Assembly (NCBI GenBank): GCA_035626775.1
Contig: DASPNA010000155.1
Span: 63-64,062, forward strand
Direction of reading: 5' to 3'
Source of the DNA: Thermoanaerobaculia bacterium
GTDB taxonomy: Bacteria; Acidobacteriota; Thermoanaerobaculia; Gp7-AA8
Length of the DNA: 64,000 nt
The translations under genes and the position numbers were made by a program. Each line of letters starts with the position of its first letter. Positions within the stretch are counted from its first letter, which is position 1. This document shows positions 558-58,757 of the stretch, one piece after another. The notes beneath the pieces are model-generated. The model had not been told where the DNA came from and made no database searches. It saw nothing but the letters and a program-made list of their open reading frames with translations.

Positions 558-1073
558 ATGAACGACATGGGTGCCTTGGAAGCTGTGGTGCTGCCGCTTG
601 CCACGTTCTGGGTGGTTGTGAGCACGATGCAATCCGCCGCGACGTTCGTCAACGGTCTAAGAGAGCAGGTCGTCACCGGCGGAAACGAACGCTGCGCGTA
701 CACACTTGCGCACCGTAAGGCGTTGTATCTGGACTGGCAGCTCTCGATGCTTGGAACGATTGCAGCGGCATTTGGTTTCAGCGGATTGATTGTCGCGGTT
801 GCAGGACACATCGCGAGGATGCCTGGCGGCGGCGAGGTCGTGAAAATTTTCTATGTTGTAGCGACAGATCGTGAATACACCCGCGAGCTCGAGTGGACTT
901 CAGACGCAAACGTAAAGCTGCCGCACTCCACATTATTCGGGGGGCGCCGAAACGTCCTGGCCGGTAACGTCGCGGAATTGCGGCACATCTTTGCCGAGGA
1001 TGTATTTGTCCATCCAGCCGAGGATGGAGCGGAGGCGCTCCACCCGGTGCCATGGCTGGCCGCTGCGCGATAG
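558..1073 (+). CDS. hypothetical small membrane protein (171 aa); extent uncertain
   Basis: ATG at 558 is preceded by a strong SD AAGGAGGA (545-552, 5-nt spacer). Two hydrophobic stretches (VLPLATFWVVVST; LGTIAAAFGFSGLIVAVAG). GC is locally lower. No family recognised. The last ~140 nt run antisense to the 3' end of the peptidase gene and across a repeat arm (912-930), so the C-terminus may be fortuitous. Confidence 0.35.
   Translation: MNDMGALEAVVLPLATFWVVVSTMQSAATFVNGLREQVVTGGNERCAYTLAHRKALYLDWQLSMLGTIAAAFGFSGLIVAVAGHIARMPGGGEVVKIFYVVATDREYTRELEWTSDANVKLPHSTLFGGRRNVLAGNVAELRHIFAEDVFVHPAEDGAEALHPVPWLAAAR
912..930. repeat. Family A palindromic element, isolated half/arm
   Basis: GTAAAGCTGCCGCACTCCA matches the right arm of the TGGAGTGCGGC...GCCGCACTCCA family. 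It lies 2 nt downstream of the peptidase stop (TAA, 933-935 on minus). Confidence 0.4.
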
Positions 1074-3167
1074 CTCGTGCGACTCATTGGGGAAGCGCAC
1101 CATCGCGGTCGGGCGGCGGAGGTATTTCAGCGCGCGGAACAGCGATTCGCCACCCGCCGCCGCCGGAGTGCGATAGTCGGCTTCGCCGAGGATGAACATG
1201 AGCGGCGTACGGATTTTCTCGACGTGCGTCAGCGGCGAGCGCTGCGCGAAATCCGCCGGGTCTTCAAACGGTGCCTTGCGGAACCAGTTCGGCTGGAAGA
1301 GCGTGAAATCGGCCGTATACCACCATGCGCTCCAGTCCGCGATGTCCCGTTGCGAGACCGCCGCGCGGAAGCGGTTCGTCTGCGTCACCGCCCAGTTCGT
1401 GAGCAGTCCGCCGCCGGAGCCGCCGGTGACGCCGAGGCGTTGCGGGTCGGCCCAGCCGCGGCGGATGAGCTCATCGACGCCGGCCATCAGATCGCGGTGA
1501 TCGTCGCCCGGATAGCGGTACTGAATGATGTTGCCGAATTCCTGTCCGTACGTCGACGAGCCGCGCGGATTCGGGTACAGCACGATGTAACCGCGCGCAG
1601 CCATCCACTGGAATTCGTGCGTGAAGATGAAGCCCCATGCCGAGTGTGGTCCGCCGTGGATGTTGAGAATGAGCGGATACTTCTTCGATGGATCGAAATC
1701 CGGTGGGCGCTGCGCCCACGCGTGAATGCGCTTGCCGTCGAAGCTCGTGTACCAGATCTCCTCGGGCGACGTCAGTCGCAGTTGTGCGAAGAGCGCGTCG
1801 TTGAACGACGTCAAACGCCGACGCTGTGCGCCGAACATCCATAAATCGCCGACGACGGTCGGCGTGGAGATGATCACCGCGATCGGTGCGCCTGGGCGCG
1901 ACGCGCTGTACGACAACACGGCCTGATCGCCCGTAGTGACGTCGATGGGCGCACCGCCGGCGGTCGGAAAGCGCATCAGATTCGCGCGTCCTTCGCGCGC
2001 GACGGTAGCGACGAGCGACTTTCCGTCATCACTCCAGAGCACGCGCGCGCCCGCGTTGCCGCGCGGTGCGCGCTGATCGCCGCCGATGCCTGCGCCGACG
2101 TCGAAATCGAAATCGGCCGTCAGATTCTTCGGCGCCGCTCCGCGCGTGAGCTCGAGCACCCACAAATCGGGCTGGCTGTACGAGCGCACCGGCCGCGACA
2201 CGTCGGCCACGAACGCCAGCATGCGTCCATCGGGCGACAGCGAAGTCTGCCCGATCTCGAACTCCAGCGCGGCGATCTTCTCCGATTCGCCGCCGTTCGC
2301 CGGAACCGCGTAGATGTCGCTCTGCGGCAATTCGTAGTACGGCTCGTCGATGCGCGTCGAGGTGTAGTAGATCCGCGCGCCGTCGCGCGACCAGATCGGA
2401 TCCTCCTCTTCGTACTTGCCATCGGTGAGCTGCCGCGCGGCGACCGGCTCCTCCGTAAGCTCCGGCGCATCGACGACCCACAGATGCGAGCGATGTTCGG
2501 GATCCGCATATCCCTGATTGTCGAAGCGATAAATCGCGCGGGTGATGGTGCGTACGTCGCTGTCGCGCTCGTTCTCATCGGGAACTGCTGCGGGCGGTTT
2601 TGGCGCACTCTCCGCGGGACGCGGCACATCGACATCCTGCGCGGTCTTGCGCGCAGCCTTCTCGCGACGCTGCTTCTCGAGATCTTTCGCATTCGCGCTG
2701 CTCGTGAATGCGATCCGCTTTCCGTCCGGCGACCACGCCGGCGCGGACGCGCCACGCGGCACGTCGGTGAGACGCGACGCCTCGCCGCCCGCAAGCGACA
2801 GGATGTGAATCTGCGGCGGCTCCGGCTTGCCGTCGCGCAGCGGCGCGCGGAGGAACGCGATGCGCTTTCCGTCCGGCGACCAGCGTGGCTGCGAGTCGCG
2901 CGTACCCGCCGTCAGTCGCGCGGGGGGCGCGCTGCCGTCGGCCGCAACGATCCAGATCGCGGTGTCGTAGCCTTCCCCTTTCTCGTTGACCGTAACGCGC
3001 GTGAACGCGACGCGCGTGCCGTCCGGCGACGGCCGCGGGTCAGCGACCCACACGAAGCGAAAGAGATCCGTCTCCGTGATGAGGCGCTTCGCCGCCTGCT
3101 GCGCGAGCGACGCGTGCGTGAGATAGACGACGACCAGCGTGGCGAGGAGGCGAGCAGTATTGCGCAT
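933..3167 (-). CDS. secreted S9-family serine peptidase (prolyl oligopeptidase / acylaminoacyl-peptidase type) with N-terminal TolB-like beta-propeller
   Basis: ATG at 3167 (MRNTARLLATLVVVYLTHASLAQQ is a signal peptide) with AAGGAAAG upstream. Repeated W/PSPDGxRIAF propeller motifs. C-terminal alpha/beta hydrolase with the nucleophile motif GVTGGSGGGLL and ILGEADYRTP...NESH. The track ORF extends to 3293, but that extension is repeat-derived. Confidence 0.9.
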   Translation of the reverse strand: MRNTARLLATLVVVYLTHASLAQQAAKRLITETDLFRFVWVADPRPSPDGTRVAFTRVTVNEKGEGYDTAIWIVAADGSAPPARLTAGTRDSQPRWSPDGKRIAFLRAPLRDGKPEPPQIHILSLAGGEASRLTDVPRGASAPAWSPDGKRIAFTSSANAKDLEKQRREKAARKTAQDVDVPRPAESAPKPPAAVPDENERDSDVRTITRAIYRFDNQGYADPEHRSHLWVVDAPELTEEPVAARQLTDGKYEEEDPIWSRDGARIYYTSTRIDEPYYELPQSDIYAVPANGGESEKIAALEFEIGQTSLSPDGRMLAFVADVSRPVRSYSQPDLWVLELTRGAAPKNLTADFDFDVGAGIGGDQRAPRGNAGARVLWSDDGKSLVATVAREGRANLMRFPTAGGAPIDVTTGDQAVLSYSASRPGAPIAVIISTPTVVGDLWMFGAQRRRLTSFNDALFAQLRLTSPEEIWYTSFDGKRIHAWAQRPPDFDPSKKYPLILNIHGGPHSAWGFIFTHEFQWMAARGYIVLYPNPRGSSTYGQEFGNIIQYRYPGDDHRDLMAGVDELIRRGWADPQRLGVTGGSGGGLLTNWAVTQTNRFRAAVSQRDIADWSAWWYTADFTLFQPNWFRKAPFEDPADFAQRSPLTHVEKIRTPLMFILGEADYRTPAAAGGESLFRALKYLRRPTAMVRFPNESHELSRSGQPWHRVERLRSILGWMDKYILGKDVPQFRDVTGQDVSAPPE

Positions 3168-3187
3168 GCGGCTTTCCTTATCACGTT

Positions 3188-3297
3188 TGGAGTGCGGCAG
3201 CGCAAGCTGCCGCTTTCCATGCGGAGGCGCCAGCCTCCACGCCCGCTCCAGCTTGCGCTGCCGCAATGAAAGCGGCGACTGGCGTCGCCGCACTCCA
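3188..3297. repeat. Family A palindromic element, extended 110-bp copy (intergenic)
   Basis: TGGAGTGCGGCAGC...GCTGCCGCTTTC...GAAAGCGGCGAC...GTCGCCGCACTCCA. The outer arms are reverse complements and internal GCGGCNGC/GCNGCCGC hairpins are present. Confidence 0.8.
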
Positions 3298-3331
3298 TAG
3301 TCTTGACACTCCTGCTACACTCGCCCGCGAC

Positions 3332-3385
3332 GTGAACAACATCCGCCGCGCGCATCGCCACCATCACCACCACCGCATTCGGTAG
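3332..3385 (+). CDS. his operon leader peptide (hisL-like): V/M-NNIRRAHRHHHHHRIR, 17 codons
   Basis: GTG AAC AAC ATC CGC CGC GCG CAT CGC CAC CAT CAC CAC CAC CGC ATT CGG TAG. Six His codons fall in seven consecutive positions (3353-3373), about 100 nt upstream of hisZ. I saw no clear SD and the start is GTG, so translation is inferred from context. Confidence 0.6.
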   Translation: MNNIRRAHRHHHHHRIR

Positions 3386-3478
3386 GGGTGCATTGGCGTG
3401 CGTCCCTCCGAACAGGAAGGGGCGCCCGATGAACCGCGCGTGAAGTCGAGACCTCTTCCTGCATCGCCGGGAAGAGGT
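3384..3478 (+). promoter_or_regulatory. his attenuator RNA: mutually exclusive hairpins
   Basis: Segments: 2 = AGGGGTGC (3384-3391), 3 = GCGTCCCTCC (3400-3409), 4 = GGAAGGGGCGC (3415-3425), 5 = ACCTCTTCC (3451-3459), 6 = GGAAGAGGT (3470-3478). Hand-paired: 2:3 (8 bp, 2 G-U), 3:4 (10 bp, 1 bulge), 4:5 (8 bp, 1 G-U), 5:6 (9 bp). Confidence 0.5.
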
Positions 3479-3488
3479 TTTCGACTTT
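3451..3488 (+). terminator. attenuator terminator hairpin plus T-tract immediately before hisZ
   Basis: ACCTCTTCC (3451-3459) and GGAAGAGGT (3470-3478) form a 9-bp perfect stem with a ~10-nt loop, followed by TTTCGACTTT and then the hisZ ATG at 3489. The 3' arm also carries the only SD-like tract for hisZ. Confidence 0.55.
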
Positions 3489-4265
3489 ATGGCCACAGCA
3501 TTCAGATATCCAACCGGAGCGCGTCCGCTGCTGATCGAAGAGACAGCGCGGCGACGGATGCTCGAAGCGCGCGTCGTCGCGCTGCTCGAAGCGGCGAACT
3601 TCGCTGAGATCGTGCTGCCCGTCATCGACTTCGCCGAGCCGTACGCGGGCATCGGTCATGCCGCTTCGAAACGGAGTTACCGCTTCACCGATCGCGACGG
3701 AGAGCTCGTCGCGGTGCGCTCCGACTTCACGCCGATGGTGGCCCGCGCGCTCGCGCCATCGCTCAACGGCAACTTGCCACTGCGGGTGTTCTATCGCGGC
3801 GATGTGATCCGCTGCGACGCATCTCGACTGGGCAAAAACCGGGAGCTCTTTCAGATCGGCGCGGAGATCGTCGGCGACCCGTCGCGCGATGCCGATCTCG
3901 AGATGCTGCATCTCGCCGCCGCTATCGCCGCGATCTTCAGCGAGTCTCCGCTCGTGGTGTACAGCGGCGGCCAGCACATCGATGATCCGCGCTTCGTCGA
4001 GCACGATGACACGGTGAGTTCCTCGGGTTCCTCGAGGTCCCTCGGGTTCCTCGGAGGGGTGGGCAGCGGTCGGCTCCTCCCCTCCGAGGAACCCCGAGGA
4101 ACCCCGAGGAACTCCGAGGAACGCGGCTACTACACAGGCGTGCGCTTCTGGGTGTACGGCGACGAGCGCCGCGCGCCGCTCGCGCAGGGCGGGCGCTACG
4201 ACACGTTGTACGAGCGCTTCGGGAAACGTGCGCCGGCCGTCGGCTTCACGTTCACGGTGAACTGA
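3489..4265 (+). CDS. hisZ: ATP phosphoribosyltransferase regulatory subunit HisZ (258 aa) carrying an in-frame repeat insertion
   Basis: HisRS-like motifs YRFTDRDGELVAVRSDFTPMVAR, LFQIGAEIVG, RGYYTGVRF and QGGRYD. TGATG overlap with hisG, and a short-form HisG lies downstream. Confidence 0.85.
   Translation: MATAFRYPTGARPLLIEETARRRMLEARVVALLEAANFAEIVLPVIDFAEPYAGIGHAASKRSYRFTDRDGELVAVRSDFTPMVARALAPSLNGNLPLRVFYRGDVIRCDASRLGKNRELFQIGAEIVGDPSRDADLEMLHLAAAIAAIFSESPLVVYSGGQHIDDPRFVEHDDTVSSSGSSRSLGFLGGVGSGRLLPSEEPRGTPRNSEERGYYTGVRFWVYGDERRAPLAQGGRYDTLYERFGKRAPAVGFTFTVN
4016..4122. repeat. Family D palindromic element (GTTCCTCGG...CCGAGGAAC arrays) inside hisZ
   Basis: Left arm GTTCCTCGGGTTCCTCGAGGTCCCTCGGGTTCCTCGGAGG. 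Right arm CCTCCGAGGAACCCCGAGGAACCCCGAGGAACTCCGAGGAAC. Translated in frame as VSSSGSSRSLGFLGGVGSGRLLPSEEPRGTPRNSEE. Confidence 0.85.
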
Positions 4266-4891
4266 TGCGCATCGCCATTCCCAAAGGACGTCTGCAGCCT
4301 GAAGCCCTGGCCACGTTTGCGAATGCGGGGTGGGACGTGCCATCCGAATCCGATCTGCGCACGCGCAAGCTCGTCTTCGCGCGCGGCGGCATCGAATGGA
4401 TCTTCGTCAAAGACGGCGACGTGCCGGTGTACGTCGATCACGGCGCCGCGGACGCGGGCATCGCCGGCCTCGATCAGCTCCTCGAGCACGACTGCAGCGC
4501 ATTCCAGGCGGTCGAGCTGCCGTACGGCCGCTGCCGGATGATGCTCATCGGCGGCCCGGACGCGCCGCCGCTAGGCTACGACTCGAAGATCGCAACGAAG
4601 TATCCCCGCATCGCCCGCCAATGGCTCGACGCACGCGCGATCCGCGCGGAGCTCGTCGCGCTCAACGGATCCGTCGAGCTCGCGGCCGTACTCGGACTCA
4701 CATCGCACGTCATCGACCTCGTCGAGACCGGCGAAACGGTGCGGGTGCACAAGCTCGAGCTGCAGGACTGCATCGCCGAGATCACGCCGCGGCTCATCGT
4801 CGCGCAACACAGCTATCGAACGAACAACCGCGAGATGCGCGCACTGATCGCGCGCGTCGAGGAGAGCATTCATGAACGCATCGTCGCCTGA
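4265..4891 (+). CDS. hisG: ATP phosphoribosyltransferase, short form (208 aa)
   Basis: MRIAIPKGRL..., DVPVYVDHGAADAGIAG, LIGGP, KIATKYP, GSVELA. It lacks the C-terminal regulatory domain, which is consistent with a HisZ partner. Confidence 0.9.
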   Translation: MRIAIPKGRLQPEALATFANAGWDVPSESDLRTRKLVFARGGIEWIFVKDGDVPVYVDHGAADAGIAGLDQLLEHDCSAFQAVELPYGRCRMMLIGGPDAPPLGYDSKIATKYPRIARQWLDARAIRAELVALNGSVELAAVLGLTSHVIDLVETGETVRVHKLELQDCIAEITPRLIVAQHSYRTNNREMRALIARVEESIHERIVA

Positions 4892-6032
4892 AGCGGAAGC
4901 CGCCCTGCGCGAGCTGGAGACACGTCGCCGTGCCGCAAATGAAAACGCGTTTCGCGTGGCCGATGAAATGATCGAAGGGGTGCGCACGCGCGGAGATGCG
5001 TACGTGGCCGAGCAGATCGCGAAGTTCGATCGCGTCAATATCACGCCGATCCTCATCACACCGCGCGACGTGCGCATCGATCCGGAGCTCGCCGCCGCGC
5101 TCGACATCGCCATCGAACGCGTCGAGTCCTTTCACATGCGCCAGCTCCCGCGGTCGTATCAGTGGAACGACATCACACATCGCGTACGTCCCCTGCGCCG
5201 CGCCGGCGTGTACGTGCCGGGCGGACGCGCGGTGTACGTCTCGACGCTGATCATGTGCGCCGTGCCGGCGCGCATCGCCGGCGTTCCCGAGATCGTGGTC
5301 GCGACGACGCCTGCCGCCGCCGCTCGCGACGAGTTGCACTACGTCTGCAATCGCCTCGGCATCCGCGAGCTCTATCAATGCGGCGGTGCAGCCGGCATCG
5401 CCGCGCTCGCCCTCGGCACGGGGTCCCTGCAGCGCGTCGACAAGATCGCCGGCCCCGGCAACTCGTACGTCAACGCGGCGAAGGTACGTCTGGTCGGCGA
5501 GGTCGGCATCGACATGACCGCCGGTCCGACGGAGCTCGTCGTCATCGCGGACGACACCGCGGACGCGGCGCTCGTGCAGGCGGATCTCGACGCGCAGCAG
5601 GAGCATGGTGCCGACTCCGCGGTGATCTGCATCTCGATCGGCAAAGCCCTCGACGTTCGCGCAACGCTGAACCTCGTTGCCGACTCGATCGACGAAGCGA
5701 TCGGCATCTCCGACCGCATCGCACCCGAACATCTCTGCATTCACGCGCGCGATGCGGAGCTCGTCGCCGCAAAGGCGCACAACGCCGGCGCGATTTATTG
5801 CGGTGCATTCGCGCCACCGGCGATCGGCGACTACATCGCCGGCTCGAATCACGTGCTCCCGACCGCCGGCAGCGCGCGCTTCTTCTCTCCGCTCGGCGTG
5901 TACGACTTCGTGAAGCGTACGAACATCGTCGCCTTCAGCGCGGAAACACTGAGCGAGCTGGCGCCGTACGCGGCTGCCATCGCAGAGTTCGAAGGGCTGC
6001 CGCAACACGCGCGATCGGTGGTGGCCCGATGA
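4872..6032 (+). CDS. hisD: histidinol dehydrogenase
   Basis: VRTRGDAYVAEQIAKFD, YVPGGRAVYVSTL, IAGPGNSYVNAAK, AEHLCIH-like APEHLCIHA, GDYIAGSNHVLPT, EGLPQHARSV. Overlaps hisG by 20 nt and hisC by ATGA. Confidence 0.9.
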   Translation: MNASSPEAEAALRELETRRRAANENAFRVADEMIEGVRTRGDAYVAEQIAKFDRVNITPILITPRDVRIDPELAAALDIAIERVESFHMRQLPRSYQWNDITHRVRPLRRAGVYVPGGRAVYVSTLIMCAVPARIAGVPEIVVATTPAAAARDELHYVCNRLGIRELYQCGGAAGIAALALGTGSLQRVDKIAGPGNSYVNAAKVRLVGEVGIDMTAGPTELVVIADDTADAALVQADLDAQQEHGADSAVICISIGKALDVRATLNLVADSIDEAIGISDRIAPEHLCIHARDAELVAAKAHNAGAIYCGAFAPPAIGDYIAGSNHVLPTAGSARFFSPLGVYDFVKRTNIVAFSAETLSELAPYAAAIAEFEGLPQHARSVVAR

Positions 6033-7072
6033 GCGCGCGCGCGACCGTCGCGGCGATGACCGCTTATGCACTCGAACTGCGTGAGGCCGAGGTGAAGCTG
6101 AATCAGAACGAGTCGCCGTTCGATTTTCCGCTGAAAGACGAGGTGCTCGCGCGCGCCGCCCGGCGCGCGTGGAATCGCTATCCCGACTTCGAGTCGACCG
6201 CTCTGCGCATCGCACTCGCGAATGCGTACGGCTTCGATGCGGACGAGATCCTGGTCGGCAACGGCTCGAACGAGTTGCTCGTCGCGGCAATCGGCACCTT
6301 CGTCGGATCAGGCACGTCCGTCGTCATCGCCCGTCCGACGTTTGCGTTGTACGAGAAGCTGATCACGATCGCGGGCGGAGTGGTGATCCCGATCGATATC
6401 GATCCAGCGACGGGACTCCTGCCGCTCGACGAGATGATCGCGGCGCGCGGCGATGTCGTCATCGTCTGCTCGCCGAACAATCCCACCGGCGGCGCGCTGC
6501 CGGAGAACGGGATCGAACAGCTGCTCGCCACCGGAGCGACGGTGCTCTTCGATCGCGCATACGGCGACTTTGCGCTGGACTCTGTATGGAGTGCGGCAGC
6601 AAAGCTGCCGCTTTCAAAGCGGCTGCGCCAGCTGCCACACTCCATAGCGAGCCGGCTGGTCACGTTCTCCACGTTCTCGAAGGCGTGGGGGCTGGCGGCA
6701 TTGCGCGTCGGGTGGCTCGCCTCGACCGCGTCGACATGTCGCGAGATTCGCAAGGTGAAGTTGCCGTACTCGCTCAATATCGTCAGCGAAACCGCCATTG
6801 TGCTCGCGCTGGAGCACCGTGAGATTTACAGCGCGAACGTCGCACGCATCATCAGTGAGCGGGAGCGGATGATCGACGCGATGCGCGCGGTCCCGAACGT
6901 CGCCCCGTTTCCGACGAAGGCGAACTTCATCGCCTTCCGCACGCGCGCGTCGTTCGACGACTTCTGCGAGCGCGGCATTCTCGTACGCAGATACGCCGAC
7001 TTTCTGCGCGTCTCGATCGGCACGCGCGCGGAGAACGATCGGTTTCTCGACGCATTGAAGGAGCTCGCATGA
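6029..7072 (+). CDS. hisC: histidinol-phosphate aminotransferase with an in-frame repeat insertion
   Basis: KLNQNESPF, VGNGSNELL, CSPNNPTGG, TFSKAWGLAALRVGW (PLP lysine). The start ATG overlaps the hisD stop (ATGA at 6029-6032). The upstream part of track ORF 5162..7072 is out of frame with hisD and is not coding. Confidence 0.9.
   Translation: MSARATVAAMTAYALELREAEVKLNQNESPFDFPLKDEVLARAARRAWNRYPDFESTALRIALANAYGFDADEILVGNGSNELLVAAIGTFVGSGTSVVIARPTFALYEKLITIAGGVVIPIDIDPATGLLPLDEMIAARGDVVIVCSPNNPTGGALPENGIEQLLATGATVLFDRAYGDFALDSVWSAAAKLPLSKRLRQLPHSIASRLVTFSTFSKAWGLAALRVGWLASTASTCREIRKVKLPYSLNIVSETAIVLALEHREIYSANVARIISERERMIDAMRAVPNVAPFPTKANFIAFRTRASFDDFCERGILVRRYADFLRVSIGTRAENDRFLDALKELA
6587..6644. 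repeat. Family A palindromic element (58 bp) inside hisC
   Basis: TGGAGTGCGGCAGCAAAGCTGCCGCTTTCAAAGCGGCTGCGCCAGCTGCCACACTCCA. Read in frame as (V)WSAAAKLPLSKRLRQLPHS(IA), just upstream of the TFSK PLP-lysine motif. Confidence 0.9.
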
Positions 7073-7656
7073 GAACCGCCACTGTCACTCGCGCGACGAA
7101 AGAAACGTCCGTCGCCGTGACTTTCGATCTGGACGGCACCGGGCAGGCCAAGATCGACACGCCGATCGGATTTCTGTCGCACATGCTCGACGCCATTGCG
7201 CGTCACGCGCAGGTCGATCTGGACATCATCGCCACCGGCGACACGTTCATCGACTATCACCATACCGTCGAAGACACCGGCCTCGCCCTCGGCGAAGCAT
7301 TCTCGACCGCCCTCGGCGACAAGCGCGGCATCCGCCGTTTCGGGTCCGCATACGTGCCGCTCGATGAAGCGCTGGCGCGGGTCGTCGTCGACTTCGCCGG
7401 CCGGCCGTATCTCGTGTTCGAAGTGCCGGTCGATCGCGAGATGCTGCTCATTCGGAAGGATTTTCCGTTCGCGCTGATCGAGGAGTTCTTCAAATCGTTC
7501 GCGAACAAGTGCGCGTGCAACATCCACGTCGATCTCATTCGCGGGCGCAACGGACATCATGCCGCCGAGGCGATCTTCAAGGCGTTTGCGGTTGCGGTGC
7601 GCGCGGCGAAGGAAGTGGTGAGCGCCGACGTGCCGAGCACGAAGGGGGTGCTTTGA
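7069..7656 (+). CDS. hisB: imidazoleglycerol-phosphate dehydratase
   Basis: RATKETSVAV, GFLSHMLDAIARH, DYHHTVEDTGLALGEAF, RGRNGHHAAEAIFKA. ATGA overlap with hisC. Confidence 0.92.
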   Translation: MRTATVTRATKETSVAVTFDLDGTGQAKIDTPIGFLSHMLDAIARHAQVDLDIIATGDTFIDYHHTVEDTGLALGEAFSTALGDKRGIRRFGSAYVPLDEALARVVVDFAGRPYLVFEVPVDREMLLIRKDFPFALIEEFFKSFANKCACNIHVDLIRGRNGHHAAEAIFKAFAVAVRAAKEVVSADVPSTKGVL

Positions 7657-8237
7657 TTCTGATCGACTCCCCCGTCGCGAACATGGCGAACATCGCGCGC
7701 GCGCTGCGTGAAGTCGGTGCGGCCGCGGAGATCACGCGTGATCCGGCGGCCGTCGCGCGCGCGCAAAAACTGGTGCTGCCGGGCGTCGGCTCGTTCGGCG
7801 TGGCGATGCAGTTCCTGCGTGAGGCGCACATCGACGAAGCCATTCGCGAAGCTGTAACCAACGGCGCGTTCCTGCTCGGCATCTGCGTCGGTCATCAGGT
7901 GCTCTTCGACCATTCTGACGAATACGGCATCACCCGCGGCCTCGGGCTCGTGCGCGGCGCAGTGCAGCGGTTCAGTGGTCCGATGCCGGTACCGCAGATC
8001 GCCTGGAACCGCGTGCGTGCGCGCGGGCCGCTGTTCGACGGCGTCGAGAATGAGTCGTTCTACTTCGTGAATTCGTACGCCGCGCGCGATGCACGCGACG
8101 AAATCGCCGCCGCCGATTACAACGGCGCGTTCACCGCCGCCGTGCAGCGGGGGCGCGTGTTCGGCGTGCAGTTTCATCCCGAAAAGTCGTCGCACGCCGG
8201 GTTGCGCGTGCTGAGGAACTTCGCCGCATGCAACTGA
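7653..8237 (+). CDS. hisH: imidazole glycerol phosphate synthase, glutamine amidotransferase subunit
   Basis: [20 protein letters not shown] (Cys nucleophile), GVQFHPEKS. The start is assigned to TTG 7653 (TTGA overlap with the hisB stop, GAAGGGGG upstream). The conserved N-terminal strand ILIDSP lies before the first in-frame ATG, so the start codon is less certain than the gene call. Confidence 0.8.
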
Positions 8238-9688
8238 TTCCTTCGCTCGACCTGTTGGGCGGACGCGTCGTGCGGCTCACACGCGGTGCGTTCGAGAGCG
8301 CGCGCGTGTATGGCGAGCCGGAGGCGGTGCTGGACTCACTCGAAGTGCCGCGCGGCACGCGACTGCACGTCATCGACCTGGAAGGCTCGCGCAGCGGCGC
8401 TCCGATCGAGACAGAGGTCGTGCGCAGACTCGCGCAACGCGACCTCGCCGTGCAGGTCGGCGGCGGCGTGCGCTCGCTCGAAGACGCTCTGCGATGGTTC
8501 GATTGCGGCGCGGATCGCGTCGTCGTCGGCACCGTCACGGCGGATGCACCGCGTTTGCTTGCGTTGCTCGTCGAACAGTTTGGCGCCGAGCGCATTCTGC
8601 CGGCGATCGACGTTCGCGATGGCGTCATTCGCGTCGACGGCTGGTCGCGCGCGTCGTCGACGTCGCTGCGCGATGCGTTCGCGTGCATCGAAGCGCTCGG
8701 CATCCGCGAAGTGCTCGTGACTGACATCTCGAAAGACGGTGTGCTGCGCGGTCCTTCGTTCGCGTTGTACCGCGAGCTGCGCGGGATGACGCGCGTGCGA
8801 TTGATTGCATCCGGCGGCGTCTCGACCACGACCGACATCGTCTCGCTCGCCCGCCTGGGCAACGTGAGCGGCTGCGTAATCGGCCGCGCGTTGCTCGAAC
8901 GGCACATCGATCTCCGCCGCGCTCGCGCGCGATTGGCAGTGCCGGATGCGATTCCGGAGCGCATCATCCCGTGCCTCGACGTACGTGACGGCCGCGTCGT
9001 CAAGGGCGTCTCGTTCACGAACGTGCGCGACGCCGGCGATCCGGTCGAATGTGCGATGCGTTACGAGGCGGAAGGCGCCGATGAACTGGTGATGCTCGAC
9101 ACCTCCGCGACCGATCGCGGGGCCGCGACGGCAGTCGAGACCGTGCGTCGCGTTGCGGACTCGATCTTCATTCCGCTCACGGTCGGCGGCGGCGTGCGCA
9201 CACGCGAAGAGTTTCGTGCGCTGCTGCGCGCTGGAGCGGACCGCGTTGCGCTCAACACCGCGGCGGTGCGGCGTCCGGAACTGATTCGCGAATGTGCCCA
9301 GGAGTTCGGCGTTCAGGCGGTGGTGCTCTCGTGCGATGCGAAGGATGGTCGTGCGACCGTGCGCAGCGGCAACGAGGTGACCGGCATCGACGTCGTCGAC
9401 TGGTGCCGTCGCGCAGAGGAGCTGGGTGCGGGAGAGATTTTGCTCACGTCGGTCGAGCGGGACGGCACGAACCGCGGCTTCGACATCGAGTTGCTGCGCG
9501 CGGTGACGAGCGCGTTGACGATCGGCGTGATCGCATCCGGCGGCGCCGGACGCGTCGAGGACTTTCGCGATGCGATCGAAGCGGGCGGCGCGCGCGCCGT
9601 GCTCGCGGCTTCGCTCTTTCACGATCGTGTGCTGAGCATCAGCGCTGTCAAACAGCATCTTCGAGAAGAAGGGATTCCAGTGCGATGA
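8228..9688 (+). CDS. hisA/hisF: fused HisA~HisF: ProFAR isomerase joined to the IGP synthase cyclase subunit in one 486-aa ORF
   Basis: N-terminal half: [33 protein letters not shown] (HisA). From about aa 250: [34 protein letters not shown] (HisF). There is no stop codon between the halves in the given sequence. Confidence 0.85.
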
Positions 9689-10284
9689 GACTCATCCCTG
9701 CCATCGTTCGAGACAGCCGCAGCGGCGCGGTGCTGACGCTCGCGTACATGAATGACGAGTCGCTGGCGAAGACGCGCGAGAGCGGCGAGACGTGGTTCTG
9801 GAGCCGCAGCCGCAACGAGCTGTGGCACAAGGGTGCGACGAGCGGCAACACGCAGCGCGTGATTCACATCGCCGAGGATTGCGACGGCGATGCGCTCGTC
9901 GTGACGGTCGAGCCGAACGGCCCTGCATGTCACAACGGCACGACGTCGTGTTTTCGCAACGTGCCGGAGTTGCCGCTCGAGCGGCTGATGGCCGTGCTGC
10001 GCGCGCGCCACGAGTTGCGTCCGAGCGATTCGTATAGCGCGTATCTCTTCACCGAAGGGCTCGACAAGATCCTGAAGAAGATCGGTGAAGAGGCGACGGA
10101 AGTCGTGATCGCCGCGAAAGGCACGAGCCGCGAGCGGCTGGTCAGCGAGCTCGCCGACCTCGTGTTTCACCTGAGCGTGCTGATGGTGAATGAAGGCGTC
10201 GAGTGGCGCGACGTCGAGGCAGAGCTGGAAGCGCGAATTTGGAGTGCGGCGGCACAGCCGCCGCTTTCAAAGCGGCAGTGTTAG
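9685..10284 (+). CDS. hisIE: bifunctional phosphoribosyl-AMP cyclohydrolase / phosphoribosyl-ATP pyrophosphatase
   Basis: HisI: [37 protein letters not shown]. HisE: [33 protein letters not shown] overlap with the hisA~F stop. The last ~14 aa ([15 protein letters not shown]) and the stop come from a Family A element. Confidence 0.9.
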
Positions 10285-10297
10285 CTGCCGCACTCCA
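10240..10297. repeat. Family A palindromic element (58 bp) between the convergent hisIE and PKS-NRPS genes
   Basis: TGGAGTGCGGCGGCACAGCCGCCGCTTTCAAAGCGGCAGTGTTAGCTGCCGCACTCCA. Outer stem TGGAGTGC/GCACTCCA encloses hairpins GGCGGC-ACA-GCCGCC and GGCAG-...-CTGCC. Confidence 0.9.
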
Positions 10298-10303
10298 AGT
10301 GGG

Positions 10304-26697
<16,394 letters not shown>

Positions 26698-26701
<4 letters not shown>

Positions 26702-32700: not shown

Positions 32701-34676
32701 GAGCACGCCTTTTGGAGTGCCGGTGGAGCCGGAAGTGAAATTGACGTAGGCGAGGTTGGCCGGCGTCAACGCGACGCGCGGGTTCGTATCGTCGGGATGT
32801 TTGAAGTGATCGTTGGCGATGACGTGTGTGAGCGCTGCGTCGCGGATGAACTGCTCGCGGCGGAGCGGAGGAAGCTCGGCATCGAGCGGGACGTAGGCGG
32901 CGCCGGCTTTGAGGATGCCGACGAGAGCCGCGATCAGGTCGAGCGACCGATCCATCGTGAGGCCGACGAGGTCGTCGGGTCGCACGCCGTCCGAGATGAG
33001 CGCGTGCGCGACTCGATTCGCGCGCTCGTTCAATTCGCCGTACATCAACGACTCGTCGCCCATCATGACCGCGATTGCGGTCGGGTCCTGCGACTCGAAC
33101 ATCTGCACGATGCTCTGAACGGGTATCGCGCGATCGGTGTCGTTGAAGTCGCACAGCAACTGTTGCCGCTCTTCGCGATCGAGAATGTCAACGCGATGCA
33201 GCGGTACATCGGGTTGCGCGACCGCCGCTTCGAGCAAACGCACGAAGCGTGCGGCGATGCCTTCGGCCGTCGCGTGATCGAAGAGGTCGACCGAATATTC
33301 GAGCTCCCCTTCCAGCCGCTCATCCATCGTGAGCATCAGGTCGAACTTGGCCACTTCCCAGCGCAGCGGCTCGGGCGTGATGGTCAGACCGGGCAACGCG
33401 AGCTCGCTTGCGGGCGCGTTCTGCATCGACAGCAGGACCTGGAACAAGGGATGACGCCCGAGTGAGCGAGCCGGATCGAGCGCTTCCACCACCTGCTGGA
33501 AAGGCACGCGGTCGTTGCGATACGCCTCCAGGTCGAACGCGCGCACGCGTGCGATGAGCTCGCGGAACGTCGGAAGTCCGGAGACGTCCGTGCGCAGGAC
33601 GAGCGTGTTGAGAAAGAGGCCGATCAGATTCTCGAGTGACTCTTCATCGCGGCCGGAGATGGCCGTGCCGATGGGGATGTCGGTGCCGCAGCCGAGTCGC
33701 GAGAGCAGTGCCGCGAGTGCGGCCTGCAACACCATGAACACGCTCGCGTTGCTGCGCAGCGCGAGCTGCTTCACCGCGTCGCGCAACTCCCGATCGATTC
33801 GTAAAGGAACGGTCGCGCCGCGATGCGTCGCCGCAAGCGGCCGCGCACGATCCACCGGCAATGCAAGCTCCTCGGGAATCCCGCGCAGCGCATCGCGCCA
33901 GAACGCGAGCTGCTTTGCGATGACGCTGTTCGGATCGTGTTCGTCGCCGAGTCGCGCACGCTGGCGTAGGGTGTAATCGGCGTATTGCAGCGGTAGTTTC
34001 AAAAGCGAGCGACCGGCGTACGCTTCGGTGAGATCGCGCGCGAGCACGCCCAGCGACCAGCCGTCGCCGGCGATGTGATGGAGCACGAGCAGCAGTACGT
34101 GATTGTCGGGCGCGATGCGGAACAGACGCGCGCGCAAGGGCAGGTCTCGCGTGAGGTCGAAGCCGCGGCTTGCCTCTTCGTGCAGGCGGTCGTGCAGTTC
34201 GTCTTCGCTTGTCATCCCGAGCGGAGCGAGGGACCCGGGCGCGAGGGGCGAGTTACGCGCGCCACCGCCCAGGTCCCTCGTTACGCTCGGGATGACATGT
34301 TGATACGGCACGCCGTCGGCTTCCGGAAATGTCGTCCGCAGCGATTCGTGGCGGCGCACGACATCGGCAATCGCGTCTTCGAGCGCGTCTACGTTCAACG
34401 ATCCTGTAAGCCGCAGCGCGATCGGGAGGTTGTACGTCGCGGCGCGATCGTCGATCCGGTTGAGGAGCCAGAGCCGCATCTGCGCGTAGGACAGCGGCAC
34501 TCGCTCGGGGCGCTTGGCGAGCAAGTGGATGAGTTGCTGCTTGTGATCGGCGAGCGCGGAACGCGTCGAGGCGTCGAGCGCGTGCTTCGGGCCGCGCGCG
34601 CGCAGTTGCTCCCCTTCCACCCACAGCTCAACCCCAGCTTCCGAAAGGCGCGCGACGAGCTCGGCGACGGCGCTCA

Positions 34677-34677
<1 letters not shown>
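26698..34677 (-). CDS. non-ribosomal peptide synthetase, 2659 aa: TubC-like N-terminal docking domain, then modules 6-7 (C-A-T-E / C-A-T)
   Basis: N-terminus [31 protein letters not shown]...[86 protein letters not shown]. The start shares one base with the upstream stop (TGATG at 34677). Confidence 0.95.
27180..27289. repeat. full 110-bp B/C composite element, A-domain loop of module 7
   Basis: CCCCTCATCCGCCCTTCGGGCACCTTCTCCCCTCGCGGAGGGGAGAAG...GCCCTCGTCCCGCTTGCGGGGCGAGGGTGGCCGAAGGCCGGGTGAGGGG. The termini are imperfect inverted repeats. Host peptide [37 protein letters not shown]. Confidence 0.9.
28616..28677. repeat. Family E element, C-A linker of module 7
   Basis: CTGGAGCGACGGGCCCTCAGCCCGTCG...CGACGGGCTGAGAGCCGGTCGTTCCAG. 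Host peptide [22 protein letters not shown]. Confidence 0.9.
29297..29358. repeat. Family E element inside the C domain of module 7
   Basis: CTGGAGCGACGCGCTCTCAGGCCGTCG...GAAGGGCTGAGAGCCCGTCGTTCCAG. Host peptide [22 protein letters not shown]. Confidence 0.9.
30584..30636. repeat. Family A element (truncated) in the E domain of module 6
   Basis: GCGGCGGCTGGCGCTGCCGCTTGGAAAGCGGCGGCTGGCGCCGCCGCACTCCA. Host peptide [23 protein letters not shown]. Confidence 0.85.
30808..30834. repeat. Family E half element in the E domain of module 6
   Basis: CTGGAACGACGGGCTCTCAGCCTGTCG. Host peptide RQAESPSFQ. Confidence 0.7.
31480..31875. repeat. tandem array: 93-bp unit (B hairpin plus C hairpin) x ~4.25, in frame in the A-domain loop of module 6
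   Basis: Units start at 31480, 31573, 31666 and 31759 (GCGCAACCCCTCATCC...). The last unit ends with the full C arm GGTGGCCGAAGGCCGGGTGAGGGG (to 31875). The host protein shows 4 x 31 aa: [31 protein letters not shown]. Confidence 0.95.
34211..34296. repeat. Family F palindromic element (GTCATCCCGAGCGNAGCGAGGGACC ... inverted) in the C domain of module 6
   Basis: GTCATCCCGAGCGGAGCGAGGGACC-(36 nt)-GGTCCCTCGTTACGCTCGGGATGAC. Host peptide [29 protein letters not shown]. The paralogous module-9 C domain has a shorter segment here ([18 protein letters not shown]). Confidence 0.85.
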
Positions 34678-53600
<18,923 letters not shown>

Positions 53601-53697
53601 TGGAGTGTCTCCGCCTGCTGAAGATTTGTGGACTGCCCTGCTACCTGGACTTTTTTCCGTACATCGTGAGTCTAGTCAGGACGGGCGGGCGTGCCGT

Positions 53698-55338: not shown

Positions 55339-55371
55339 TCTTGCCGGAAAGATTAACCCAACCGCGCGCCC

Positions 55372-55479
55372 GGGTACCTCGGAGTACCTCGGGTACCTCG
55401 GAGTTCCTCGGAGGAGATTGGGATTCGGCGGCTCAATCCCTCCGAGGAACTCCGAGGTACCCGAGGAACCCGAGGGACT
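55372..55479. repeat. Family D palindromic element, intergenic (MBL to ABC spacer)
   Basis: GGGTACCTCGGAGTACCTCGGGTACCTCGGAGTTCCTCGGAGG-(central GGGATT...AATCCC hairpin)-CCTCCGAGGAACTCCGAGGTACCCGAGGAACCCGAGGGACT. Confidence 0.85.
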
Positions 55480-55484
55480 CCGTT

Positions 55485-56642: not shown

Positions 56643-56670
56643 CGATGTCTCCTCTTCTTCGATGAGCTAA

Positions 56671-56771
56671 CCCTCATCCGCCCTTCGGGCACCTTCTCCC
56701 CTCGTGGAGGGGAGAAGGCTACACAAGGCCCCGCGCCTGGGGGAGAGGGCTACCAAAGGCCGGGTGAGGGG
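56671..56771. repeat. B/C composite element, intergenic (S8 to MBL spacer)
   Basis: CCCTCATCCGCCCTTCGGGCACCTTCTCCCCTCGTGGAGGGGAGAAGG...CCCCGCGCCTGGGGGAGAGGGCTACCAAAGGCCGGGTGAGGGG. Confidence 0.85.
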
Positions 56772-56801
56772 CGGATTCGTGCTGGCTCATGGCCCTTCCA
56801 G

Positions 56802-58757
56802 TCAGACGGACTGCAGCGCGCGCAGGATGTCGAGCATCCCCGCGCCCTGAAAATAGCGCTCGCGCCCGAGGTCGGTCGCGGAGTCGCGGAGGATCTGCTT
56901 GATGCGCATCGGCCGCCCGACCAGCTCGTCGTAGCGCGCCATCAGCAGCGCAGCGGCGCCGCTGACGTGCGGCGCGGCCATGCTCGTGCCGTCCTTGACG
57001 CCGTACGACGCGTTCGGCAGTGCGGACATGATTTTTTCGCCCGGCGCAACGAGATCGGGCTTGAGCCGTCCGTCGCCTGTCGGTCCGCGACTGGAGAAGT
57101 AGCTGACGCCGTACGTGTGCGGCCGCTCGCGATGCGTCGCTCCGACCGTGATGACCAGATCGGCGTTGCCGGGATCGGTGATGCTGATCGTGTTGTACGA
57201 CTCGTTGGTCACGCCTTCGATGGTCGTGCGGCGATAGCCCTGGTTGCCCGCCGCCACCACCACCACCACGCCCGACGACACCACGCGCTCCGCTTCTTCG
57301 CACACGGGCGTGCGGCCGCACGCGTAGTTGGCAACGTCATGCGGAATGGAGAGGCTCATGTTGACGCCGTGCACGGCCATGTAGTCGTTCGTGGAGTTCA
57401 ACCACCGCACGAACTGCAGCGCCGCCATCACCGTGAACTCATCTCCTCGGCCATCGTCATCGAGGATGCGCAGGTCGTAGAGATTGATGTCGGGACAGAC
57501 GCCATTGATGTTGCCTTCCTCGTCGTCGCTCTTCCAGTTGCCGCCGAGGATGCCGGCGACGTGCGTGCCGTGATCGAACTTCGGCGGCTTGTATGTGGCG
57601 TCGTGCGGGATCTTGAGCAGCGGCGCGATGATGCCCCAGTCGATCGACATGCCGGTCGACAGCGCATCCGACAAACGGTCGGTGTGTTTCTTCAGCTCAG
57701 CGCCGGTGACACTTTTACCTTCGACGAGCGAGTCGATGTTCTCGTCGGGATCGAGGAGCTGCTGGATCTTCGCGAAGTCGTAGGTCTGGCGCACGCGCGA
57801 GTCGTACGACGCGAACGGCACATCCGACTCGGCGGGCTGAGAGCCCGCCGCTCCAGATTTCTTCTTTGGCTTGTCGATGCGGAACGCGGGATGCGCCGCG
57901 TCGACACCGCTGTCGATGATCGCCCACGTGATTTCCTTGCACGAGATGCCGAAGACGCGTTCGGCCGCATCGGCCTTCACCGCTTTGCGCGAGCCGGCGA
58001 TGGTCGGCGTGGCCACACGATTGAGCGCGATCGAATGAATGAGCGGCGGGACGTCGCGCTCGTGGACGCCTGACATCAGCTCGCCTACTTCGTCGACGAG
58101 CACGCGCCAGTCCTCTTCACCGGCGCGCGCGGGTCCGCGTTCCTTGTCGAGGAACACGGGCGGCAACGTCTTGCCGCGATGCACGAGCGCGATTGCGCCG
58201 ACCACGCGGATCAACCACAGCACATCGGGCGGGACCTTCGGCAATCCAGCGTTCGATGTCGTGTGCTCCGGATCCACCACCGCCTTCGCCAGGTTCGCAC
58301 GCACCTCGGCTTTCTGCAGGTTGTCGAGCTCGAACTTGTCCGCGAGCTTCTTCCACCACTGCGTCATCGGGATGACGGCGCGCACGAGATCTTCGAAGTA
58401 GAGCGTCGCGGCGATGGTGGACTGGTTGTAGACGATGCGCAGTCGCGCGTTCGGATCGTGCGCGATGTTCCACGAGCCTTTCGCGCGCGTGATCGCGACG
58501 TGCTCGCGCAGGATCTGCTGCACCTCGCCGATGCGCGCCTCGCGGTACGGTGAGAGCAGCAGGTTCACGGCGGGACGCGGATCGGTCTCGCTGGTGCGGC
58601 GCGTGAGGCGTTGCGGGAAGTTGTTCGGATCGATGGCGTACTCGAGCCACACGTCGGGCAGCACCGGCGAGTCCTGCGTGAAGCGGCGCACGCGGCCGCT
58701 GCCGAACATCAGTTGATCGATCAGCCAGCGATCGAGATAGACCGGCTTGTCGGGCAT
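56802..58757 (-). CDS. S8 (subtilisin-like) serine peptidase, 651 aa, cytoplasmic (no signal peptide), with a ~240-aa N-terminal region of unknown function
   Basis: Catalytic motifs WAIIDSGVDAAHPAF (Asp, aa ~282), DHGTHVAGILGG (His), DGTSMAAPHVSGAAALL (Ser). The start is 3 nt after the patatin stop. Confidence 0.88.
   Translation of the reverse strand: MPDKPVYLDRWLIDQLMFGSGRVRRFTQDSPVLPDVWLEYAIDPNNFPQRLTRRTSETDPRPAVNLLLSPYREARIGEVQQILREHVAITRAKGSWNIAHDPNARLRIVYNQSTIAATLYFEDLVRAVIPMTQWWKKLADKFELDNLQKAEVRANLAKAVVDPEHTTSNAGLPKVPPDVLWLIRVVGAIALVHRGKTLPPVFLDKERGPARAGEEDWRVLVDEVGELMSGVHERDVPPLIHSIALNRVATPTIAGSRKAVKADAAERVFGISCKEITWAIIDSGVDAAHPAFRIDKPKKKSGAAGSQPAESDVPFASYDSRVRQTYDFAKIQQLLDPDENIDSLVEGKSVTGAELKKHTDRLSDALSTGMSIDWGIIAPLLKIPHDATYKPPKFDHGTHVAGILGGNWKSDDEEGNINGVCPDINLYDLRILDDDGRGDEFTVMAALQFVRWLNSTNDYMAVHGVNMSLSIPHDVANYACGRTPVCEEAERVVSSGVVVVVAAGNQGYRRTTIEGVTNESYNTISITDPGNADLVITVGATHRERPHTYGVSYFSSRGPTGDGRLKPDLVAPGEKIMSALPNASYGVKDGTSMAAPHVSGAAALLMARYDELVGRPMRIKQILRDSATDLGRERYFQGAGMLDILRALQSV
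57831..57856. repeat. Family E half element inside the S8 peptidase gene
   Basis: GGCGGGCTGAGAGCCCGCCGCTCCAG. Host peptide SGAAGSQPA, lying between the Asp and His motifs. Confidence 0.75.

Follow-up and report, generated by a model that had tools for sequence, protein, structure and literature searches.

Palindromic repeats of several families lie in frame within histidine biosynthesis and megasynthase genes of a Thermoanaerobaculia bacterium

Palindromic repeats that are read as part of host proteins are known from Rickettsia, in which families of Rickettsia palindromic elements (RPEs) occupy in-frame positions in unrelated genes, at places where the protein fold can accommodate them (Ogata et al. 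2000, 2002; summarised in PMC10969869). Repetitive extragenic palindromic sequences (REPs) and REP dimers have also been described within open reading frames (ORFs) of several species, where they encode 20-30 residues; R. conorii and Opitutus terrae had the largest numbers (Di Nocera et al. 2013, PMC3733652). Among free-living bacteria, Opitutus terrae is the richest case reported, and its roughly 70 mentions in the supplement of that paper are consistent with tens of intragenic REPs genome-wide. In-frame fusions are likewise on record for bacterial MITEs (miniature transposable elements with inverted repeats), namely Coxiella QMITE, intragenic ERIC and Correia elements (reviewed in PMC10969869), and natural interrupted adenylation (A) domains of nonribosomal peptide synthetases (NRPSs) hold complete extra domains (M, Ox or KR) in the a8-a9 or the a2-a3 interval (PMC11355689). 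Here we analyzed a 64,000-nt stretch of contig DASPNA010000155.1 (positions 63 to 64,062, assembly GCA_035626775.1), hereafter the window, from a Thermoanaerobaculia bacterium. Palindromic repeats were found there within a histidine biosynthesis (his) operon, an S8 peptidase gene and three contiguous minus-strand genes for NRPS/polyketide synthase (PKS) megasynthases, designated N1, N2 and N3. We propose, with a probability of roughly 80%, that they represent several families of non-autonomous selfish palindromic repeats of one Thermoanaerobaculia (Acidobacteriota) lineage, which resemble REPs, REPINs (REP dimers) and MITEs in build and RPEs in behavior.

The window contains 43 repeat loci (cf. 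Table 1). Seeded nhmmer profile searches (E from 1e-4 to 1e-34) recovered 15 of family A (14 elements and one remnant terminus), 11 of family B/C, 11 of family E, four of family D and one of family F; the last locus is a further inverted repeat, hairpin G, that was missing from the original prediction, a note on this DNA that had counted about 40 loci in six families. The repeats proved to be real. The family A 11-mer TGGAGTGCGGC occurs 24 times at <=1 mismatch, compared with 2.7 ± 1.6 times in shuffled sequences, none of 100 shuffles reaching 24, and all elements tested fold as very stable RNA hairpins (minimum free energy of -38 to -88 kcal/mol, z of -5.3 to -11.2 relative to shuffles). As to the number of families, A, B/C, D and E recur, whereas F is present once; a second copy of F or G was found neither in the window nor, among the matches listed, in 876 kb of related contigs (described below). 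F-like matches are present in two further loci of Acidobacteriota metagenome-assembled genomes (MAGs), and the label 'family' is weakly grounded for both F and G.

Family A is composed of two hairpins with 8-bp stems (GCGGCRGC, a 3-4-nt loop, GCYGCCGC), which stand 7 nt apart between the outer flanks TATGGAGT and ACTCCATA; position 6 of the stem shows compensatory variation, being A:T in 11 hairpins, G:C in 8 and mismatched in 2-3. Family E consists of two inverted units, CTGGAG-CGACGGGCT-CTC-AGCCCGTCG, separated by 8-14 nt with the tags outermost, and its monomer has a 9-bp stem and a 3-nt loop, often with CCAT directly before it. Over 303 monomers (among the matches listed), every stem position of family E was paired in 93-99% of cases, and at two positions both partners have changed in a compensatory manner (for pair 9-25, 256 monomers have A:T, 19 have G:C and 9 have C:G). 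Both A and E are head-to-head dimers of a 25-30-nt hairpin with an (A)T-(C)TGGAG tag, i.e. they have the REPIN layout; the tag reads TGGAG(T) in family A and CTGGAG in family E, is preceded by TA or AT, and in family E the sequence CGTC sits within the paired stem, not as an unpaired tag. Family B/C is an inverted dimer of one unit type, formed by a CCCCTCAYCCGSCCTTCGGSCACC end and a 12-bp-stem hairpin, with MITE-like terminal inverted repeats (CCCCTCATCCGCCCTTCGGGCACC pairs with GGTGGCCGAAGGCCGGGTGAGGGG, with 3 mismatches in 24 nt). Family D is a long hairpin, the arms of which contain 3-5 tandem copies of the 9-10-nt unit GTTCCTCGG.

Structurally, REPs and REPINs are a closer match to these elements than RPEs are. 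Shared features are short GC-rich hairpin monomers with an unpaired end tag, head-to-head inverted dimers, compensatory stems and a mostly extragenic location with a minority of copies in frame, family E being unusually genic (about one third). The elements differ in the tag, which is (A)T-(C)TGGAG instead of GTAG or CGTC; in addition, a search for motifs of the REP-associated tyrosine transposase (RAYT) that mobilises REPINs disclosed no such gene in the window or in the related contigs (876 kb). With MITEs, family B/C has in common its 24-nt imperfect terminal inverted repeats around internal hairpins and the occurrence of copies in both spacers and ORFs; it differs by having no identifiable target-site duplication or parent insertion sequence (none was seen in the window), and it is itself an inverted dimer of a two-hairpin unit. 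The likeness to RPEs is one of behavior: several palindrome families stand in frame in unrelated genes, housekeeping genes included, encode extra peptides and are missing from orthologs. However, RPEs belong to an AT-rich obligate intracellular alphaproteobacterium and are roughly 100-150 bp long, whereas the host of the window is a free-living, 65% GC member of the Acidobacteriota, and its units are 27-110 bp long and, to judge from an Rfam scan that gave no match, unrelated in sequence. Further differences from RPEs are that most copies of families A, B/C and D outside the window are extragenic (among the matches listed) and that local density is extreme, with 35 loci in the 43-kb NRPS/PKS cluster. 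The elements share RPE behavior, not membership of the RPE family. The original prediction had pointed to RPEs as the precedent, which fits the behavior but leaves out the intragenic REP dimers that have been catalogued as well (PMC3733652).

All host ORFs remain open across the elements, and 38 of the 43 loci are read through in frame. Thirty-five of these lie within N1-N3, where they account for 2656 of 43297 nt of coding DNA (6.1%), and hisZ, hisC and the S8 peptidase gene contain one each. One more locus, a family A element, provides the tail and stop codon of hisIE, apparently in place of the native C-terminus, and four loci are extragenic. Thus, the hosts and the small number of intergenic copies are as first predicted, save that the megasynthase total is 35 and not 34. 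Three to six of the six frames of each element are free of stops, so read-through is cheap and requires no special adaptation. Family A is indeed read in different frames, three in all (MECGG.., VWSAAA.. and YGVRRHQPPLSTRQPQLPHSK), and the first half of B/C in two, one of them being the PHPAFGHP frame, as a result of a 1-nt length difference within the element. These different frames, the extragenic copies and the compensatory stem changes argue that the palindrome, not the peptide, is the conserved entity, in agreement with the prediction.

The his operon allowed direct comparison of occupied and empty sites. In a syntenic soil-metagenome operon (loci L001-L003) that is 85-89% identical in nucleotide sequence in hisZ and hisC, both element sites are empty: HisZ has 225 amino acids (aa) compared with 258 aa in the window, and HisC has 330 aa compared with 347 aa. 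In the DNA alignment, the D element of hisZ corresponds to a net +102 nt and the A element of hisC to a net +51 nt, with gaps in the relatives. Among 120 orthologs, HisC is mostly 323-334 aa long and the longer proteins bear C-terminal extensions; the 17 extra residues of the window protein are missing from 11 of 11 aligned orthologs. None of the best 120 homologs of a 1251-residue N2 segment (E-C-A) carries the element-encoded peptides either. A search for empty sites with the joined flanks of 234 metagenome elements returned self-matches only. Together with paralogous NRPS modules, which have empty sites at equivalent positions, the ortholog and homolog comparisons support the view that the window repeats are insertions. 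The contrary explanation, that the segments are ancestral or selected protein sequence (e.g. low-complexity linkers) and palindromic by chance, would account for their richness in Ala, Gly, Pro, Arg and Ser, which is that of natural linkers, and for their placement in linkers; but copies of one repeat are read in as many as three frames and others are extragenic, stem positions co-vary, and the HisZ/HisC orthologs and the best 120 NRPS homologs have no such segments, which makes this explanation very improbable. As a separate observation, the C-terminal extensions of four HisC orthologs from related MAGs (P0034, P0047, P0098 and P0026) read other repeat families (VILSRADGEGS.., GEGGRRPDEG), which indicates that the 3' end of hisC attracts repeats in relatives too.

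Most in-frame copies lie in the megasynthase genes, whose modules are clearly paralogous (60-93% identity). Motif mapping gave the architecture C-A-T-E-C-A-T-C-A-T-E-C-A-T-E-C-A-T for N1, docking-C-A-T-E-C-A-T for N2 and KS-AT-KR-ACP-C-A-T-E-C-A-T-E-C-A-T, followed by a GWSFG thioesterase-like motif, for N3. In eight of the ten A domains, a B/C element occupies the loop past LVAYVV, between a8 and a9, which is made of 5-9 ordinary residues in the other two. Family A is found 35 residues past the HHxxxD motif in four of the six E domains, with one common frame and flanks that are almost identical, where it replaces a segment of about 30 residues that the other two E domains keep. (Three of the six E domains have HHLAVDA instead of HHxxxDG, two of them among the four with family A.) Families D, F and E all occupy one N-terminal loop in different C domains. 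The C-A linker is occupied in five modules (by A, a C-type half or E) and the T-E linker in three (by A or E), E and G were placed between a2 and a3 of A domains, and the PKS module contains an A element between KS and AT, a B-type half between AT and KR and a D arm between KR and ACP. Such convergence of different families on the same loops points to a survival filter for permissive, surface-exposed positions. The claim that the sites are loops or inter-domain linkers was correct for the linkers, but many sites lie inside domains (a8-a9, a2-a3, C-domain loops and the E-domain position).

The B/C copies at a8-a9 and the E and G copies at a2-a3 occupy the same positions as the extra domains of interrupted A domains (PMC11355689), but the window inserts are 18-130 residues long, repeat-encoded, probably disordered and devoid of a catalytic domain. 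In an AlphaFold model of an A subdomain and T domain of N2, built with nine aligned window paralogs (mean predicted local distance difference test score, pLDDT, of 76.8), the sole segment with pLDDT <50 comprises residues 70-98, which belong to the part encoded by the B/C element at 27169-27278 and follow the LVAYVVA strand, ahead of the next helix. Sites outside the modelled A subdomain were placed by alignment, and the HisC model, derived from a 12-sequence alignment, was poor (mean pLDDT 60, predicted template modelling score 0.43) and was not used to place the insert; the A-subdomain model supports a position compatible with the fold for B/C. In-frame amplification has enlarged two B/C copies, one to 4 x 93 bp (a 130-residue loop) and the other to 2 x 84 bp (a 69-residue loop), although copy number derived from short reads may be unreliable.

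The families are not confined to the window. An exact search of JGI metagenomes with the E half-site yielded at least 115 loci (876 kb), mostly on large contigs of samples Ga0196977 and Ga0196978, none of which aligned with the window over >=500 nt. They contain 24 matches to family A, 38 to B/C, 37 to D and 157 to E, these and all following counts for the related contigs being among the matches listed. Since A, B/C, D and E are all present in non-overlapping contigs, these derive from the same or a closely related population, and their content argues against families restricted to the NRPS/PKS cluster, although the contigs may belong to another genome. A copy was called intragenic if an open frame crossed the element and both 240-nt flanks had a coding GC signature (based on GC content at third codon positions, GC3) in that same frame; applied to the window, this test recovered 32 of 37 known intragenic loci (about 85% sensitivity) and flagged none of the five extragenic or hisIE-stop loci. 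In-frame intragenic copies amounted to 45 of 138 for family E, 4 of 23 for A, 3 of 29 for D and 1 of 33 for B/C. Thus, the predicted location mostly in frame inside genes holds for the window and, in related contigs, for about one third of family E, which alone is often intragenic; most A, B/C and D copies there are extragenic. The density of A, B/C and D taken together is 0.53 per kb in the NRPS genes and 0.11 per kb in the metagenome loci, which shows that the NRPS cluster is a real hot spot, even allowing for duplication.

Host genes of E elements in the related contigs encode PEP carboxylase, an AMP-binding enzyme, a FAD-binding oxidase, an LCAT-like lipase and an HlyD-family protein; further hosts look like genes for an Lhr-like helicase, a Ser/Thr kinase and a methyltransferase, to judge by inspection of their sequences alone. 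In two contigs (L193, 6822-6882, and L222, 7090-7150), an E element joins an ORF for a family-3 solute-binding protein and one for an ABC permease into a single frame, which may be a repeat-mediated gene fusion. In another (L167, 5623-5684), an E dimer lies immediately ahead of the a3 motif (LTSGSTGVPKG) of a stand-alone AMP-binding enzyme, the same position as in NRPS module N3_2902.

An exact search of species-representative genomes with the family A terminus GCYGCCGCACTCCATA gave matches (loci L004-L122), among those listed, in MAGs of Acidobacteriota, Verrucomicrobiota, Planctomycetota, Chloroflexaceae, Hydrogenedentota and others. The A-type copies in these MAGs share only the tagged hairpin, the spacing between the two hairpins being variable, and the TGGAG-tagged A hairpin may represent a widespread, under-described REP-like superfamily. 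When the window and every locus retrieved (about 1.8 Mb in total) were scanned for RAYT motifs, one match was obtained, in locus L052 (about 5890-7200) of an unrelated Verrucomicrobiales MAG; there, a RAYT/IS200-like ORF (LMSNHFHVLV, YVDLNP) and a pair of A-type tagged hairpins are separated by about 260 bp, and the ORF is a possible lead to the mobilising transposase family.

Repetition, hairpin potential, in-frame position, extragenic copies, use of different frames and absence from orthologs and paralogs were observed; how the elements move, that the genic inserts are translated and that these are neutral is what we infer. The elements would spread through the genome as DNA, and a genic copy would survive only if its net length keeps the frame, the frame read is free of stops and the element has landed in a surface loop or linker able to take up 10-40 additional residues. 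The outcome would be an RPE-like pattern, with palindromes translated within the host protein. The NRPS/PKS genes would be a hot spot because they offer many permissive loops and because module duplication or gene conversion would copy an element along with its module.

Several observations weigh against this interpretation. Families A and E bear a TGGAG tag, whereas the REP superfamilies described so far are defined by GTAG or CGTC, and no transposase of the RAYT or insertion sequence (IS) type emerged when the window and the related contigs (876 kb) were scanned for motifs. Both empty his sites indicate replacement of 12-21 nt of ancestral sequence instead of clean insertion, and no target-site duplication was definable at the hisZ or hisC junctions; family A is often flanked by TA on both sides, yet TA is missing from the empty hisC site, where 21 ancestral nt were replaced. 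The search with the 1251-residue N2 segment found no close NRPS ortholog, the best match being 51% identical, and the gene calls in the metagenome loci stem from the GC3-based heuristic, about 85% sensitive on the window. Finally, the downstream junction of B/C (after ..GAGGGG and before T..) is identical in all eight modules that carry it, though this family is intragenic in only 1 of 33 loci elsewhere, and B/C elements and their flanks are weakly correlated in identity (Spearman 0.52, p = 0.045, with non-independent pairs).

The last two points also belong to a different explanation, according to which most NRPS copies are not separate insertions but go back to one ancestral insertion per site class; the element would then have multiplied as modules were duplicated and have been kept uniform through gene conversion, either from module to module or with copies elsewhere in the genome. 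Given the shared B/C junction and the rarity of intragenic B/C copies, module duplication or gene conversion, or else site-specific targeting, fits this family better than random insertion and subsequent filtering, and the uniform position, frame and flanks of family A in four of six E domains and the evident paralogy of the modules speak in the same direction. On the other hand, the B/C upstream junctions vary by 1-6 nt and the two reading frames do not track flank similarity. The six full B/C copies are about 95% identical, compared with about 76% for their 300-nt flanks, so the elements are younger or more constrained than the host sequence. In the one pair of paralogous module blocks compared, identity did not change sharply at the elements, and duplication does not explain why different families sit in the same loops. 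By our own count, about 15 homologous site classes accommodate the 35 NRPS loci; assuming one event per family per site class, a minimum of about 20 insertion events, i.e. family-by-site combinations, would be left. For B/C, the sequence comparisons give a mixed picture as to whether it was inserted repeatedly at a target or once, with module duplication and homogenisation thereafter. Some NRPS copies have probably spread through module duplication; that this holds for most of them is possible, but in our judgment somewhat improbable.

It was also considered that the hairpins had been co-opted by the host, for ribosome pausing at domain boundaries during co-translational folding, for mRNA stability or as recombination sites that shuffle modules. 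The stability of the RNA hairpins (-38 to -88 kcal/mol) and their concentration at domain boundaries, at equivalent positions in many modules, would suit such roles; moreover, tracts of 110 bp with 95% identity in eight modules are long enough for RecA-mediated recombination, and recombination is known to drive NRPS evolution (PMC8097286). However, the filter for permissive sites explains the positions equally well, the same elements are found in unrelated single-domain genes and spacers, and identity breakpoints were missing at the elements of the module pair tested. Co-option is therefore unlikely in our view, and we are just as doubtful of its most specific form, in which near-identical 60-110-bp hairpin DNA in many modules would serve as built-in recombination sites for duplicating, deleting or swapping modules and the mRNA hairpins would pace translation. 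If it were true, mobile repeats would drive the modular evolution of NRPS/PKS genes and at the same time provide a natural map of it and of insertion-tolerant sites.

Two further explanations can be weighed more briefly. Repeats of 58-110 bp are short enough to confuse k-mer assemblers and there is uncertainty about copy number in the tandem arrays (4 x 93 bp and 2 x 84 bp), which would speak for assembly or polishing artefacts in a short-read metagenome; but each element has flanks that match paralogous modules in register on either side, 43 kb of ORF stay open and the same families occur in other assemblies. Identical in-frame copies were present in contigs of two JGI metagenomes (e.g. L193/L222 and L155/L169), which renders an artefact unlikely, and overall we give it hardly any credence. 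Similarly, strong RNA structure is the sole hint that the elements might be removed after transcription or translation, leaving mature proteins without them. An Rfam scan of the window gave no match, group I and II intron models included, and inserts of 10-40 residues are far too small for inteins, both of which speak against self-splicing introns and inteins; the inserts are also in frame and free of stops, which splicing would not need, and removal of the elements seems extremely unlikely.

In our interpretation as selfish repeats, the window is a new, unusually dense example of a known phenomenon and not a new kind of system. It extends the phenomenon of selfish DNA within genes that encode proteins, best known from Rickettsia, to a free-living high-GC soil acidobacterium with at least four co-resident families. 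What appears to be new is the density, the colonisation of a megasynthase by several families and the coincidence with known permissive sites (a8-a9, a2-a3 and inter-domain linkers). We know of no earlier report of such density, i.e. 38 in-frame loci in 64 kb and about 6% of a 43-kb NRPS/PKS coding region, the figure for Opitutus terrae probably being tens per genome. In the literature searched, no report of such elements inside NRPS/PKS genes was found, and the supplement of PMC3733652, when searched for family A-encoded peptides, contained none. The surviving copies reveal, in the manner of a natural scan, where C, A, T, E, KS-AT-KR-ACP and thioesterase-region architecture tolerates insertions; the scan recovers the a8-a9 and a2-a3 sites used by engineers and suggests more candidate sites in C and E domains and linkers. 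In practical terms, gene callers and domain predictors for biosynthetic gene clusters will meet unexpected low-complexity loops of 20-130 residues in such genomes, and short-read assemblers may collapse or misjoin the repeats.

Table 1. Repeat loci and main genes of the window. Elements in N1-N3 lie in minus-strand ORFs; the strand of the elements themselves is left unassigned. HH+n, n residues past the HHxxxD motif.
Feature	Position	Strand	Location and remarks
S9 peptidase gene	933-3293	minus	probable start MRNTARLL
his operon	hisZ 3489-4265; hisG; hisD 4872-6032; hisC 6029-7072; hisB; hisH; hisA-hisF fusion 8228-9688; hisIE ending 10284	plus	
N3 megasynthase ORF	10304-26701	minus	5465 aa
N2 megasynthase ORF	26698-34677	minus	2659 aa
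N1 megasynthase ORF	34677-53600	minus	6307 aa
A, remnant terminus GCCGCACTCCA	920-930		extragenic, just 3' of S9 peptidase stop
A, composite (two tagged A hairpins around extra sequence)	3188-3297		extragenic, divergent spacer upstream of probable S9 peptidase start and hisZ
D (4 x GTTCCTCGG, loop, 4 x CCGAGGAAC)	4018-4122		in frame in hisZ; missing from orthologs
A, 58-bp double hairpin	6587-6644		in frame in hisC (VWSAAAKLPLSKRLRQLPHSI)
A	10240-10297		last ~15 codons and TAG stop (10282-10284) of hisIE; occupies convergent spacer to N3
A	10450-10506		N3 aa 5399-5418, ~90 residues past GWSFG, C-terminal thioesterase-like region
B/C half	11417-11471		a8-a9 loop, A domain of N3 module 3
E, inverted dimer	12768-12829		C-A linker, N3
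A	14731-14788		N3 E domain, HH+35; ~30 ancestral residues replaced
B/C with in-frame 84-bp tandem duplication	15617-15823		a8-a9 loop, N3
E dimer	16707-16769		between a2 and a3, N3 A domain (module N3_2902), 5 codons ahead of a3 motif peptide
A	19031-19087		N3 E domain, HH+35
E half (SGAAGSQPA)	19555-19587		T-E linker, N3
B/C without B hairpin	19946-20029		a8-a9 loop, N3
D arm, 3 x CCGAGGAAC	22970-23004		KR-ACP linker, PKS module, N3 aa 1233-1244
B-type half	23810-23869		between AT and KR, PKS module, N3 aa 945-964
A	25146-25197		KS-AT linker, PKS module, N3 aa 502-519
B/C, full 110 bp	27169-27278		a8-a9 loop, N2 module 2
E dimer	28616-28677		C-A linker, N2
E dimer	29297-29358		N2 C domain, HH+63
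A	30580-30636		N2 E domain, HH+35
E half	30808-30845		N-terminal part of N2 E domain
B/C amplified in frame to 4 x 93 bp	31486-31875		a8-a9 loop, N2 module 1; loop of 130 residues
F, 86-bp inverted repeat	34211-34296		N-terminal loop, first N2 C domain
B/C, full	35088-35197		a8-a9 loop, last N1 module; PHPAFGHP frame
E dimer	37198-37265		N1 C domain, HH+64
E dimer, degenerate	37569-37620		N-terminal loop, N1 C domain
E half	39060-39092		T-E linker, N1
A	39290-39343		directly past a10 motif (A-T linker), N1
Hairpin G (GTGCTCTCTGTGCCCTCTGTGGT inverted)	40372-40427		in frame between a2 and a3, N1 A domain; -37.7 kcal/mol
E, partial	41716-41763		N-terminal loop, N1 C domain
A	42614-42671		N1 E domain, HH+35
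B/C, degenerate C half	43491-43567		a8-a9 loop, N1
C-type half	44829-44876		C-A linker, N1; orientation opposite to a8-a9 copies
D	45885-45968		N-terminal loop, N1 C domain
B/C, full	46608-46717		a8-a9 loop, N1; PHPAFGHP frame
A	47973-48031		near N-terminus of N1 A domain; +14 residues vs paralogs
A	48097-48151		C-A linker, N1
A	50618-50676		T-E linker, N1; third frame (YGVRRHQPPLSTRQPQLPHSK)
A	52307-52363		first C-A linker, N1
D	55371-55469		extragenic, spacer between ABC transporter and metallo-beta-lactamase-fold genes
B/C	56670-56771		extragenic, spacer between metallo-beta-lactamase-fold and S8 peptidase genes
E half	57827-57856		in frame in S8 peptidase, aa 301-311

The GC content of the window is 62-68%, and the top HisC matches are annotated as proteins of Thermoanaerobaculia (Acidobacteriota) MAGs. 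Past N1-N3 there follow genes for an ABC transporter, a metallo-beta-lactamase-fold protein, the S8 peptidase, a patatin-like protein and a DUF6531 protein. Within 59872-64000, the DUF6531 (RHS-like) ORF stops at 62514, and a long minus-strand ORF (62541-63962) has a non-coding GC pattern; possibly the DUF6531 gene goes on in a different frame, and a frameshift or sequencing error would then have to be assumed. In the his operon, HisZ is short, with 225 aa when the insert is subtracted, and only the N-terminal part of the HisRS-like profile was matched, while hisA and hisF form a single 486-aa ORF with two His_biosynth matches, as they do in the orthologous locus L001.

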